NCBI GenBank assembly: GCA_026023565.1
Contig: JAPETS010000019.1
Location: forward strand, 372,001 to 436,000
Length of the DNA: 64,000 bases
Reading direction: 5' to 3'
Source: Cirrosporium novae-zelandiae
Lineage: Eukaryota
Part shown: piece by piece, positions 6,171 through 48,277 of the stretch
Position numbering within the stretch: position 1 is the first letter of the stretch
Layout of the letters: every line of letters begins with the position of its first letter
Made by a program: the position numbers and the translations under genes
Notes under the pieces: model-generated
Database searches by the model: none
What the model was told of the DNA's origin: nothing
What the model saw: the letters and a program-made list of their open reading frames with translations, nothing else

Positions 6171-8233
6171 CTACTCGTCTACAACCCTTCTCGCATACTC
6201 CACATCATCCCAACCAGCTTCCCAGATACTCTTGATTCTCAATACCCACCGTCGACAGGCTAGCTCTCTCTCCAATTTCCCTACCGCTCTACAAATTTTT
6301 CCTGTTGTCCTACCTCCTAAGAACGTCTTTCCATCGGCTTCCCACAAGGCTGAGCCCCTCCATCCCTCCCACATCCCATTCATGAAAGGGGGTCTGTGCG
6401 GGTGAAACAAGTCTGCAAATTGAAAGTGTTGTACCCACGGGCCAGGAGAGGTTATAACGGAGGAGAAAGTCACCAATGCATAAAGTTCGATCAAACAATT
6501 GGTAGGTATTTTCTGGCAAGAAGATGCAGCATTTATAGCATCTCCAATTCGGAAACAGGTTCGGAGAACAATACTCGGGTTAACACCGATGATAGGGGAA
6601 CGGTCTTTCAATGGCTGAGGGAACCGAGGTCTAGTTATCGGAATCAGGGCTTTCGAACGTGGATTGGCCACGCTTTTTAGCAAAGGGTCCACCGCAATTG
6701 AAGAATCTGCTTTCAATCCCAGGGACTTGGTACTTTTCAGACCACTCCGAGATGGCTTATCAACTACCACGGGTAGAATAGGGCTTGAGACCCGGAGAGG
6801 CGATGGCTTGGCGAGATCAGTAGCTTCAAGTTCTGAAAGAGCATCTCTAACAAAAGACCAGTCTTCATCTATGCAACTTGATGGTGTGCTATCGTCGATC
6901 GTGTAAGCGCTGTTGGTTGAATTAAGAATATGTCGATTAATTAAATGAACAGGAGAAGAATATGTTGACTTATGTTGATTTCTTTCCGAAGTTTCACCCA
7001 CCGAGCTAGGAGGGGGTGATCCGAATAGATTGCAATCGTAGGTTTCATTTGTCTGAGAGTTATCGTCGAGAGGGAATTGAAGGTTGCTAGGTGGTGTGAA
7101 GGCTTCCTTGACCACTGCTAATTGAGCAGCTTCTTCAATGGCATCTTCGTCCATTGGGTATTCGTCATCTGAAATACTTATCATCGTGTACTCTTGAAGA
7201 TTAAGTTCGGCATTTCGGAAGTTTGCGACTACATCGCATTGATCTACAAGAGAAGGTTGTTTATACTTATCAAGTTTTGTATTTGCTTCTTCCTGCCAAG
7301 CTAGCTCTGAGTCAAAATCTGTATCATGGCGTGGCTCTCTATTGGATCTCATTGAAAACTTAGTTCGATTGATGTCCACAGTATTTGGCACTGGCCATAC
7401 TTCAGGAATGGCTTTTTCAAATCCCCTAGGAGTAAGGTCGCCAAGAGTAGCTGTGTAAGATGATGAAATTCTGGGGGGTCGAGTAAATCTACCGTCTTCC
7501 CAAAGTTGAGCCGGCAACTTGTGCTCAAATTGATCACCCTTTCGCCTACTTTCGAAAGTACAGTTGTTCATGAAGGTTTCCACTGGCTCATGGTAGCGGA
7601 AGATAGCCAGCTTTTGTTTTGTTGTTGGATTCAGCTCAAAATCTGAGGCTTGGGTGATCATGCCATCATTGCCACGACTCTTTTCGATTGGATCCACATA
7701 TCTCTTTGAAATGTGGGGTTTTGTAGAAGTCATACCACTAGACGGTTCATCAACAGTCTTCTGCTTTTTCTCGGCTACATTTCTACGGTTGCTTTGAGAT
7801 TTTTGATCCGAACCCACTAGTCTTTTCTTTGAGGATATTAGTGTTGTTTTTATTGGGGTCTTCCTTTTCTGAGAAGTGTCCGAGGCCTAGGAAAGGTTAG
7901 TAATGATATCATAAGCGCAATTGTTCGAGGGAAAATATAACATATGCTAGCAATATTATATAGACGTACATTGTTAAGTCCAGGTGTAGCAGCAGTGAAC
8001 ATTGCCTCCCTACTCTCATATATATGTAATTTCTTTCCCTCAAATCCGTTCACTGGAGTGAAATTGGAAGTCAGGTCATTTTTCGGGAAAGTTATGTTGT
8101 CTTCAGGAAACGAGATAGGCCTTCTTGACCTGTCTAGAATGATAAGAAACTGAGCGAACCAGAAAATAAGAAGGCATTCTTACGGTAACGAGGCATTGTC
8201 CTTCTTTTCTGGCAGTTTAGCTCTTCGTCCCAT
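6171..8233 (-). CDS. Hypothetical protein, long disordered N-terminus and C-terminal OB-fold-like domain (SPATA22/RPA32-like candidate); 3 exons
   Basis: ATG at 8233 (MGRRAKLPEKK), GTAAGA and GTACGT donors and a CTAAC..TAG acceptor join in frame to the 548-aa ORF; C-terminal LRTCFRIG..IELYALV..QHFQFADLF..CRAVGKL..IKSIW region. Gene is well supported; fold call is inference. Confidence 0.8.
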
Positions 8234-15444: not shown

Positions 15445-16072
15445 TCAAGACTTTTCACATCTCCTCATCCCATCTTTAATAATTATAATTCTTCCCCGTC
15501 GGTCGTATTCGAATTCTCTTATAAATGCCCAGGCTTCCCGGCCTTCCTTCCGGAATTCCGGTCCTATTTTTTTTCGGGCGAGCTCAACATCTTCCTCTAC
15601 CACAAGGGCGAGATACTTGTCGCGTTTGGTGAAGATGAAAGGCCTATGGTGTCGTTCCAAGCAAGCTTCCCAGAAAGCATTCTCGATTACCCCGTTTGGT
15701 AATTCCCTGTCCCAATTTTTTTGGATACACAACAGTCTTTCAAAGCATTCATCAATCTGGAAGCTAAATCCATGGGGTGGCATATCGTTATAAGCCAAAA
15801 GCTTCATGTCTCGAAGCATGCCTGCTGTAGTGATGAAGAGAGGTGAGGGGAAACATTCCCGAATCATGACATCTCGGCTATAGCCAGCTGGGATGACTCT
15901 AAAACTTGAGTTAGCCAAGTGTTTTAATGGGATCACCTTGGATTAGGAGTCAACATACAAGGCTGGCTGCCATCCAGCCCTGGTGGTTGGTTAGCATCTT
16001 CTACAAGAGATAGAGCAGGATAATCACATACCTTTGACGACGAGTTGATCGGAACGCTGGATTCGAGCCCAT
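15445..16072 (-). CDS. Orphan protein A (paralog of 47263-48277); exons 16072-16032, 15979-15959, 15898-15445
   Basis: MGSNPAFRSTRRQR-AGWQPAL-VIPAGYSRD... built with two GTATGT..GCTAAC..AG introns, both phase 2; shares a domain with the 47 kb gene. Confidence 0.8.
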
Positions 16073-17151: not shown

Positions 17152-19476
17152 ATGTCGTCAAACTGGCCGCTGCCAAGCCATCCACAAGACGGTTATCCGA
17201 ATGATATTAGTCTTTCTCTTGTTGACAATATTGACGATGCATCACATCAGTCGTCCACAGAGATGGGGGAGAGGAAGGACAACAATAACACCTCTTCCTC
17301 CTCCTTCGTTGATGCTTACAACATTCCTACTACTACAGAGCCGCCACAGCAGCAGCCATCATGGTCCCACAGACCTCGTCAACTAGGCAAATTCAGTATC
17401 ACTCGAATAGCGATATTGTTGTTTGATATAACCCTTACATTGTCACCTTTCTTTTTCATTGGTGAGATGGGATATATGCTCTTAGAATAATAACATTGTG
17501 GTGGACCTAACTTTTTATTGCTTCCCATTAAGTTATTGCTATTATATCAGCTAGAGAAGATGGACAATCCGCCCCCTCATCGCGGGGAATTGCGATCACG
17601 CGTATTACTCGGTTCATCCCGTCAGCATTTCCTATCGTATTTGCTGCTCTCATGGGTCGGTTCTTCAGGAGCATTGGATTGTACAAAGCGGAACGAGGGG
17701 TGAAACTTGGGGTATGTCAATCTTTTAGGGCTTATTTGCAAAGCGGGATCTTTACTAACTTGGTGTTAGGTTCTGGAGCATTTGATAGGCTGCCAGTCTC
17801 TTTTTTCGGCTCTCGAAAGGCAGATTATGCTACGGAAATTTACCTTCCTGGGTTTCATCATTCTTGTGCCATGGATACTGTCACCCTTGGGTGGCCAGGC
17901 TGGCCTTCGCCTCATCAGCACCGTCCCGGAAAGCTCTGGCTTCAACACAAGCCTCAGATATTTAAGCCCGGTCAACAACAACTATTCGGTGCTTATTGGT
18001 GGCTCACCCGGGGCTCTTTTGGTCGGGGGCACGCAGGCCATTCCGCTCTTTCTGCTATCGTTGATGAGTCCCGATAAAACGTTAGAGTCTCCTATGGATG
18101 TATGGGGAAATATCAAAATCCCCAGGATCGATTCGTTGATGCTGCAGGACACGGCGAACACAGGCAACCCATGGAGAGAGGTTGATCCAGACAACGTCAC
18201 CTACGCTTCGTACATTGGGATTCCCGTTGCCGGTATACCATCAGTAGGAAACTCCAGCTTCACCATAGAATCATTCCACTTCAACGTCAACTGCTTTGGC
18301 AACGAGAAAGCCAGCGGCCTGGATTTCATCCGCCAGAACTACTCGCTCCTCCTCCACAAGGACTCTCTCGCACAATCAAACTCCACGGTGTATCAAAGAC
18401 TCTACAACATCTCCTACGGGGACGGATCCTACTACCCATCAACATTCTTCCTCGACACAACGGGGACCATGAGCCTACACGACCGACTCACATCCTTCGC
18501 GCAGGCCACGTCGCCCAAAAGCCTCGTCTTCGGCTCCGTCGCCACACAATCCTTCGCCATCGACTTCAACTGGACGCTCGCGTCGGACATCACCATGACC
18601 TTCGGCAACTGCTCGATCGGCAAAGCAAACGTAGAATCCAAAGTGCGGTGCCAAAACCACAACTGCCAGGTCACAGCCATGCGCTATGCCGACCACCACT
18701 CGGATCCACCCTCGTACCTCTCAACCATCGACTCCACCGGAAACGTCGCCACCCTCTCCCAATACCTTTCCATAGTCTCCAACCGAATCTCGCTGGAAGC
18801 AAGCCCGATCCTAAGCACCTCCATCGAGCGCTGGCTCTACAGCGCCGGCATAAACGTAAACAGCTACAACGAATTCTTCGTGAACCTGTACGACCTTGCC
18901 CCCGAAGTGCTCGCCACGCGTCTAACCTTGGTCCTAAACACCCTCTGGCAATCCTCCTTCGCAACCGAGTTCCTCGGGGGAGACATCCCGCAAGATCTCA
19001 CCTACTACGACGGACTCACGTACAACGCCAGCAACGGCGGCGGCGCCTACTTCAACCCCACTCCTGCATCCGTCACCACCAGCACGGGCGACATCTACGT
19101 CTGCTCCTGGCCCTGGTTCGCTACCTTGCTCGTCATCTCCATCATCCTCCAGATCTGCTCCGTGCTCTCCCTAGTTTTCAAATATTACACCTTATCCCCG
19201 GATATATTGGGGTATGTATCCTCGTCTCTGAGGGATAATCCGTATGCGCTTCTGCCGGGTCGGGGGGGGGAGGGCAGGGAGGGGAGGGAGGGGGAGTGGG
19301 GATCCGCGATGGATGGGTTCGAGAGAACCAGGGTTGTGGGCGATGTGGTGGTTATGGTAGGGGATGTTAGGGGCAGGGAACAGGTGGGACATGTGGCTGT
19401 AGCGACGGTGGGGGGGAAGACAGGTGGTGGTGACACGGGCGTGATTGCATTGAGGAAGGATAGGTTTTATGATTAA
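17152..19476 (+). CDS. Uncharacterised multi-pass membrane glycoprotein; 3 exons (approx. 17152-17461, 17533-17711, 17771-19476)
   Basis: Hydrophobic segments, WILSPLGGQAGLR and DVWGNIKIP blocks, many N-x-S/T sequons, C-terminal TM followed by PDILGYVSS; GT-AG introns. Confidence 0.85.
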
Positions 19477-47262: not shown

Positions 47263-48277
47263 ATGAACCCGTCAACTCCTGCGTTAGATATAGAATTCCC
47301 AATCCCTCTACATGAGTTGGTCAAACCAAACCCTACTTCACATGTACTTACTTGCTAACAAACATCTTCCAGAGACACCGTCCAACCACCACTGTAGGTC
47401 AAGCAGCACCCCTACCTATTCCTTCAACCCTTTCTATTCAAAACCCCTCGCCCTCATCCCACCACTACTAACCCCCGCCAGAATCGTTCCCCCTCAATAC
47501 ACCATCACGAACATAGACGCCGTCTACTTCATCTTCCGCCCCCGCCCCCTAACCCTCAAAGGAGGTTTCTTCCGTTACCGCCGCCTCAGCTTCGCCGCCT
47601 ACAACGACATCGGCCCCCACAGCTTCAGCCTAAGCAACCCAGCCGTGCTCTCCCGCCTGCAGAGAATCCGGGACCAGCGGAACCGAGGCGAGGACCTGTG
47701 TCCTCTCGATAATACGTACCTCGCCGCGTGCATCGAAAGACATGTCAATCCGGGGCAGTTCTGGAATCGGGGGGTTTATATTAACATGGCAATGTCAGAC
47801 GTAGAGCGTAAAGTCAGGGAAGCTGCAGCGATAACGTGGTCGATGGGGGGGGGTAGGTTGGGAGATGATGATATGGATACAGGTGAAAATAACGACAGCG
47901 AGGAAGAAAACCTCCTTTCTACACTTGAAGCAGTTGGGAATTTACATATTGCTCCTCCTACTCCTACTGTCACCACCACCACCACCACCACCACTAGTCT
48001 AGAACACGAAACTGCAGCAGAACTACCATCTACCCCCAATCCTATTCCTATCCCTAATCCCGACGATACCAGATCACCCCAAAACAGACTCGCGCCAAGA
48101 CATGTAATATATCCATACCCCTCATGGGAATTAAGAGATTCACTCCGGATATCAGGCTGGTTGCGGACCCGGCCCCGGTCCCGGAGCCAGAATCGCATAT
48201 CACCGGATGATATTAGGGAACATCTTCGGGGGATGAGGAGAGGGGGGAGGGGAGGGGGGAGGGGGAAGTTAGATTGA
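47263..48277 (+). CDS. Orphan protein B (paralog of 15445-16072); exons 47263-47282, 47373-47393, 47482-48277
   Basis: MNPSTPA-DTVQPPL-IVPPQY... with two phase-2 GT..CTAAC..CAG introns; shared domain followed by a low-complexity tail ending in RGG repeats. Confidence 0.8.

Follow-up and report, generated by a model that had tools for sequence, protein, structure and literature searches.

The stretch of DNA analysed here (the window) comprises 64,000 nucleotides (nt) of contig JAPETS010000019.1 of Cirrosporium novae-zelandiae, an ascomycete of the class Xylobotryomycetes. It carries two genes, referred to below as A and B, that encode similar proteins. Gene A spans 15445-16072 on the minus strand and corresponds to the NCBI record 'MAG: hypothetical protein M1834_002628' (P0003, 171 amino acids, aa). 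Gene B lies ~31 kb away, at 47263-48277 on the plus strand, and corresponds to the record 'M1834_002635' (P0004, 256 aa). The large exons of the two genes, whose translations are denoted P0001 (A) and P0002 (B), retrieved these records with identities of 100% and 99%. The features of both genes are listed below.

16032..16072, minus strand: gene A exon 1, 41 nt, with the ATG at 16072, ending in phase 2
15980..16031, minus strand: gene A intron 1, 52 nt, GTATGT...CACCAG, with a TGCTAAC branch-point-like site
15959..15979, minus strand: gene A micro-exon (exon 2), 21 nt
15899..15958, minus strand: gene A intron 2, 60 nt, GTATGT...TTTTAG, phase 2, interrupting a Leu codon (TT/A)
15445..15898, minus strand: gene A exon 3, including the TGA stop at 15445-15447
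15583..15813, minus strand: segment of gene A that aligns with gene B in BLASTP (P0001 residues 29-105), covering most of the conserved helical domain
47263..47315, plus strand: gene B exon 1, 53 nt, ending in phase 2
47373..47393, plus strand: gene B micro-exon (exon 2), 21 nt
47482..48277, plus strand: gene B exon 3, with an open frame to the stop at 48275-48277
47579..47806, plus strand: segment of gene B that aligns with gene A in BLASTP (P0002 residues 33-108)

Gene structures and paralogy

Splice models were built by brute-force enumeration of GT/GC..AG pairs and were checked against the first 60 residues of P0003 for gene A and of P0004 for gene B. For each gene, one model reproduces these residues: the model with exons 16072-16032, 15979-15959, and 15898-15445 in gene A, and a model with introns of 57 and 88 nt, both in phase 2, in gene B. 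The predicted exon structures agree with the NCBI models M1834_002628 and M1834_002635. In both genes two phase-2 introns flank a second exon of 21 nt, and intron 2 falls within a Leu codon after Q-P-x, just as the first-pass annotation of this DNA had proposed from the letters alone. The micro-exon of gene A encodes the last base of R14, the codons of AGWQPA, and the first two bases of L21. Similarly, that of gene B encodes the last base of E18, the codons of DTVQPP, and the first two bases of L25, the Leu codon being interrupted as CT/A.

The true C-terminus of gene B is uncertain. The NCBI model excises a 33-nt 'intron' at 48103-48135 (GTAATA...TTAAG) and ends near 48210. A length of 33 nt seems very short for a fungal intron. 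Without this excision the frame is open to 48277 and gives an RGG-rich tail, ..RGGRGGGRGKLD.

The first-pass annotation had aligned the peptides encoded by 15795-15613 (minus strand) and 47597-47779 (plus strand) over 61 aa without gaps, with 22/61 residues identical, and had noted upstream QPxL and PxPL blocks common to both genes. Translation, shuffling, and BLASTP all agree with this alignment. The ungapped BLOSUM62 score of the 61-aa pair is 92, the maximum reached by shuffled sequences is 17, and none of 100,000 shuffles matches the real pair in score or identity. In BLASTP, the large-exon translations align with 45.8 bits, an expectation value (E) of 4e-11, and 26/77 identical residues with one gap. 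The upstream blocks, QPxL-[VI][VI]PxxY and PxPL, are indeed found in both genes. No nucleotide similarity is seen between the regions of gene A and gene B (the best blastn match is 20 nt), and the proportion of synonymous differences (pS) between them is 0.82 over 61 codons. The duplication is therefore old, as had been suspected from the first reading. Because the synonymous sites are saturated, the ratio of nonsynonymous to synonymous substitution rates (dN/dS) of A versus B is not estimable. Judged from their sequences, A and B are real, anciently diverged paralogs. A search of the window with a hidden Markov model (HMM) of the family, run on six-frame open reading frames (ORFs) of >=30 aa, revealed no further copies beyond A and B: these two score E of 1e-50 and 9e-46, and the next best ORF has E of 0.48.

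Members of the family and their conserved residues

The two genes had been regarded in the first-pass annotation as orphans forming a two-member family, for which a profile search was recommended. That search does not bear out the idea. A two-sequence profile of genes A and B (A2) was scored against 1.84 billion representative proteins and gave 21 proteins at E<=1e-3 and 13 at E<=1e-10, both queries counted, which indicates a wider family rather than a pair. The queries themselves score 5e-84 and 8e-60, and the best non-self member 1.8e-19. The non-self matches at E<=1e-3 form 19 clusters at 50% identity, of which 18 were retained. The remaining protein, P0017, was not accepted as a family member: it is 943 aa long, consists of tandem repeats of ~110 aa, and is matched only in eight short stretches. 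Its E of 3.7e-10 against the A2 profile (profile positions 47-86) was treated as spurious, that is, as composition- or repeat-driven. Word-indexed searches with each large exon returned only the query's own NCBI record. A later search with a 21-sequence alignment, in which the 8000 candidates sharing most words were scored, brought in only close relatives of P0005, together with the name Tothia fuscella.

Names were obtained from exact look-ups of 20 proteins (16 of the 18 profile members plus four from the 21-sequence search) and from those listed in that search. The named relatives represent nine additional species and four additional ascomycete classes and are annotated as hypothetical or uncharacterised throughout. 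They are Acarospora aff. strigata and Hypocenomyce scalaris (Lecanoromycetes), Candelaria pacifica (Candelariomycetes), Chaenotheca gracillima and Sclerophora amabilis (Coniocybomycetes), and Cryomyces antarcticus, C. minteri, Oleoguttula sp., and Tothia fuscella (Dothideomycetes). Within the reach of these searches, members seem to be missing from Sordariomycetes, Eurotiomycetes, and Leotiomycetes. The helical domain, including its invariant F, A, E-R, and R residues, recurs in MMC16_004089 (Acarospora aff. strigata), M1812_006473 and M1812_003705 (Candelaria pacifica), M1837_005469 (Sclerophora amabilis), M4579_007065 (Chaenotheca gracillima), BJ546DRAFT_949420 (Cryomyces antarcticus), and EJ08DRAFT_245237 (Tothia fuscella). 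Named Pezizomycotina relatives with complete models also carry the N-terminal WQPxLxVPxxY segment. Compared to these relatives, the two Cirrosporium genes are the most divergent rows, with long branches and no VGxNG motif. No description of the family was found in the literature searched by the locus tags or accessions of members and by source species names, subscription journals and supplements being outside the scope. The papers retrieved for Cirrosporium novae-zelandiae are taxonomic.

The relationship between A and B was also considered in phylogenetic trees. A quick tree of 25 rows leaves out P0017 (the repeat protein), fragments, and the near-duplicates P0012, P0015, P0028, and P0036; in it, A and B stand in an open basal fork. 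A tree of 18 rows additionally leaves out P0007, P0010, P0021, P0031, and P0033-35. In the latter, gene B pairs with Candelaria_2 with a Shimodaira-Hasegawa-like approximate likelihood ratio test (SH-aLRT) value of 81 and a long-branch warning. Candelaria pacifica also has two diverged paralogs, P0013 and P0023, and it is the divergent P0023 that pairs with gene B in the 18-row tree. This pairing hints that the A/B duplication could predate the classes. The approximately unbiased (AU) test does not decide the matter, as a clade of A and B is not rejected (p 0.498).

Conservation was counted over 19 non-redundant members, P0012, P0015, P0028, and P0031 having been dropped from a 23-row alignment as near-duplicates; the numbering is that of P0003. 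The domain, ~90 aa in length, has the motif LAYND..PHGFS ... RL..IE..W..G ... AFW.ACYERHH.P..F..RE.YL. Residues F65, A99, E102, R103, and R113 are present in 19/19 members, F110 and Y116 in 18/19, and C100 and S66 in 17/19. All nine are kept in both gene A and gene B. Members with complete N-termini share a second motif, (VGxNG[IL]xL)...WQPxLxVPxxY, which is present in P0013, P0014, P0016, P0018, P0019, P0022, P0023, and P0029. The N-terminal segment can be written more generally as [W/V]-[Q/E]-P-x-L-x-[V/I]-P-x-x-Y and reads WQPALVIPAGY in gene A and VQPPLIVPPQY in gene B. The same WQP-type block occurs in P0013, P0022, and P0029 and in the metagenome loci L001, L003, and L004 described below.

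The first-pass annotation had suggested that a conserved D/H/C/E/H set could be a metal or catalytic site. The E and C of this set stand up well, since they correspond to E102 and C100. The other positions do not: D59 is found in 12/18 members, H63 in 9/19 (with Tyr in 6), and H104 in 11/19. A universal metal or catalytic centre made of those five residues is thus unlikely. The adjacent H105, outside the proposed set, also stands at 11/19. A site centred on C100, E102, R103, and R113 is conceivable.

The domain is followed by charged tails that vary among members; 11/24 members carry an acidic motif, L..ELE.A..D, and 10/24 have basic clusters of the K[KR].[KR] type. The acidic motif, more precisely L..ELE.A(M/L)..D, is located ~30-50 residues past the helical domain and is often followed by a basic KKRR/KRAR cluster. 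It is carried by P0005, P0006, P0007, P0008, P0009, P0010, P0011, P0013, P0032, P0033, and P0035 and, by this regular expression, is found in neither gene A nor gene B. Gene A differs from such relatives in being without a long charged tail. The arginines and the basic tails allow another reading, in which the family would be a nucleic-acid-binding nuclear factor whose invariant domain arginines and basic tails contact DNA or RNA. The invariance of R103 and R113, the presence of R75 in 16/19 members, the basic clusters (KKRR, KRAR, KRRR), and the RGG-rich end of the unspliced gene B frame are consistent with it. However, neither fold search reported below returned a helix-turn-helix or any other nucleic-acid-binding domain above noise, the tail of gene A is short and has no basic clusters outside the domain, and the tails of many members are strongly acidic. 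We consider such a factor unlikely.

The micro-exon across loci

Four further loci were obtained in one metagenome scan, the query match being 100% for L001 and L002, 85% for L003, and 54% for L004. Upstream of the large exon, the metagenome loci have an exon encoding MAP..IQPVGHNGL.L. followed by a short exon that encodes (N/Y)AWEPP and a split Leu. The open-frame models containing this motif number two in L001, three in L003, and one in L004. All six have a 21-nt second exon, homologous to the micro-exon of gene A, and phase-2 introns; the only ambiguity among them concerns the donor of intron 1. In a DNA alignment of the micro-exon across L001, L003, and L004, three synonymous third positions and one Asn/Tyr site vary. 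Between L001 and L004, little of intron 2 can be aligned beyond the splice sites and a CCGCTAA branch-point-like site. The proteins of the metagenome loci group with Acarospora (SH-aLRT 84-87), and the exon structure would therefore predate the split of at least two classes. As far as sequence comparison can tell, the gene structure with its 21-nt exon predates the divergence of the sampled lineages.

The dN/dS of L001 versus L003 is 0.37 over 100 domain codons and likewise over 99 tail codons, which indicates that purifying selection acts among orthologs. The locus at L004:3016-3620 is interrupted within the most conserved domain, where the Tyr of the LAYND motif is replaced by an in-frame stop and the frame shifts a few codons further on. 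Exon 1 and the micro-exon of L004 are intact, and its intron 1 starts with GC, is 57 nt long, and is stop-free, so that its retention stays in frame. The locus must be a recent pseudogene or else be misassembled. The case of L004, as well as the long branches of A and B and their loss of the VGxNG motif, might be taken to mean that one or both Cirrosporium genes are decaying or are annotation artefacts, unexpressed and with the micro-exon as a by-product of gene prediction. Yet the frames of A and B are open, every invariant or near-invariant residue is kept in them, the length, phase, and amino acids of the micro-exon are conserved while the flanking introns have diverged, and the dN/dS between orthologs is 0.37. 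Decay or artefact is accordingly a very improbable explanation.

Many database models of family members take the first Met of the large exon as their start (P0005-P0011) or read through intron 2 (P0032). Such models are without the two small upstream exons; in the L001 DNA these exons are present for P0032 (L001:2853-3130). Furthermore, P0012 and P0029, which belong to the same 90% cluster, differ by a 14-aa stretch covering VGRNGLPLNESSPW. This suggests alternative gene models at the micro-exon.

No synteny with the window was detected: within 3-kb flanks of L001, L002, and L004, the family genes are the only ORFs with a counterpart in the window. Downstream of the family gene, at L001:4852-6180 and L004:4550-6148, lies a class I/II aminotransferase gene (PF00155) encoded on the opposite strand. 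L001 and L004 are therefore syntenic with each other.

Predicted structure and possible function

The AlphaFold2 model of P0003 made with the family alignment has a predicted local distance difference test score (pLDDT) of 76.6 and a predicted template modelling score (pTM) of 0.72; the blocks of residues 51-120 score >=90, and the block 21-30 scores 90. The model of a compact member, P0014, made with 25 sequences, reaches pLDDT 87.9 and pTM 0.83. It contains four helices (residues 47-63, 76-90, 97-111, and 117-135), and its N-terminal coil (1-30) scores 78-90. From the latter scores we infer that the coil may pack onto the helical core. The maximum mean Kyte-Doolittle value over 19 residues is <=1.59 in 24/24 members, so no stretch has transmembrane strength. 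The proteins of the family have neither a signal peptide nor a membrane segment and are soluble. A homodimer prediction for gene A residues 14-135 gave a score of 0.00; the alignment was unused and the fold uncertain in this run, which is no evidence either way.

The first-pass annotation recognised no known domain, and the searches agree. Pfam-A gave no family for the exon-3 translations of A and B at E<=10, and none for full-length P0003. Among the scanned members nothing exceeded the gathering threshold, and no family was common to more than 2 of 23 members. PDB sequences gave 0 matches at E<=10 to the A2 and A3 profiles. The structure comparison suggested at the outset leads to the same result: the model is helical, and Foldseek against PDB found no match for the models of P0003 and P0014 (best E 2.0 and 7.4). 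ESM Atlas yielded no usable match for P0003 or for P0013 residues 1-150; the Atlas model of P0003 is of low quality (pLDDT 0.36), and the structure rows have template modelling (TM) scores <=0.45. A remote characterised relative of the domain may lie outside the PDB, Pfam-A, and ESM Atlas searches.

Membership in the FCD family (PF07729) was tried and rejected, as hhalign against 13 FCD domains of E. coli K-12 gave a probability of 2.4% over 23 columns. FCD is the effector-binding and oligomerisation domain of bacterial GntR/FadR-type regulators, such as TM0439 of Thermotoga (PDB 3sxy, 3sxk). FCD domains have six or seven helices, whereas the model here has four long ones. In contrast to GntR/FadR regulators, the family has no winged-helix DNA-binding domain, and its N-terminal 30-45 residues are modelled as coil. 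Also unlike FCD proteins, its members are eukaryotic and their genes bear introns. TM0439 is reported to have a conserved Asp/His set for metal binding. In the family, the three histidine columns counted above are variable. A loose likeness to FCD in the predicted arrangement of helices is a lead only.

This lead would place the domain among small-molecule- or metal-sensing modules, distantly related to FCD or working like it, with a site formed by C100, E102, and H104/H105; it is a more specific version of the metal-site suggestion in the first-pass annotation. The conservation of E102 and C100 fits such a module, and the sole hhalign segment puts the family's LD.AFW.ACYERHH on the D..FH helix of FCD. 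However, the Foldseek and hhalign values given above are poor, no FCD or GntR match appears in Pfam in 23/23 members at E<=10, the histidines vary, and the helix number and the missing winged helix do not fit. A sensing module is thus an improbable interpretation.

The reading that we favour, and hold to be probable, is that A and B are ancient paralogs of an undescribed, fast-evolving Pezizomycotina family characterized by a four-helix domain, an N-terminal segment, and an old micro-exon structure, and serving as a binding module. Considered by itself, the proposal that the domain is a soluble non-enzymatic binding module is tentative. In the proposed mechanism, the N-terminal segment would clasp the helical core. 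The domain and, in most members, the variable charged tails with their acidic and basic motifs would act via protein-protein contacts. The site of action would probably be the nucleus or the cytosol, possibly the former.

Several points weigh against this paralog and binding-module interpretation. The VGxNG[IL]xL block is absent from genes A and B, in which only the second half of the N-terminal motif is kept. Gene A has no acidic motif, and its sole basic match, KRDK, lies inside the domain. The splicing of both genes is predicted, its basis being prediction together with conservation. The regular expression used for the metagenome models demanded the AWEPPL motif, so that the 3' edge of the micro-exon was fixed and not free. 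A weak profile of two sequences underlies the taxonomic range, and the family may extend further and contain a characterised member. The functional part is tentative, as neither a partner nor a localisation nor a fold relative supports it. Finally, a ligand or catalytic site would explain the invariance of E102-R103 and R113 and the near-invariance of C100 equally well.

A bolder version takes the domain as a new fold-level family of a subset of Pezizomycotina, the named members being dominated by lichen-forming and rock-inhabiting fungi, in which the micro-exon is a splice switch toggling the WQP 'clasp'. The exon is symmetric, with phase 2 on both sides and a length divisible by 3, and its skipping therefore stays in frame. 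We regard this version as quite unlikely.

The neighbours of the two genes at 2091-60092 of the window are ordinary housekeeping genes that show no cluster logic. Several long ORFs of the window, e.g., 6171-7886 and 17770-19476, have no Pfam match. The genes recognized are given below.

2.1-2.8 kb: MIP channel
8.5-11.4 kb: ataxin-10-like gene
12.5-14.7 kb: TCO89-like gene
21.0-23.4 kb: CHY zinc-finger gene
29.9-31.4 kb: AreA-GATA-like/DUF3295 gene
42.6-43.7 kb: CCT chaperonin subunit
45.1-45.7 kb: chromo/chromo-shadow HP1-like gene
52.4-54.9 kb: VTC/SPX
55.5-58.4 kb: MCM4
59.7-60.1 kb: Nse2-type zinc finger

Fungal genomes contain many uncharacterised families like this one, and the novelty here consists in missing annotation and not in a demonstrated new mechanism. 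Should the family prove to have no known relatives, the uncharacterised protein space of ascomycetes would gain a small helical domain that is modelled with confidence. Homology searches that use database models without the N-terminal exons under-detect the family. The 21-nt exon is conserved in both Cirrosporium (Xylobotryomycetes) and relatives that group with a lecanoromycete. It would therefore be one of the few fungal micro-exons with such deep conservation, and gene predictors could usefully be tested on it.
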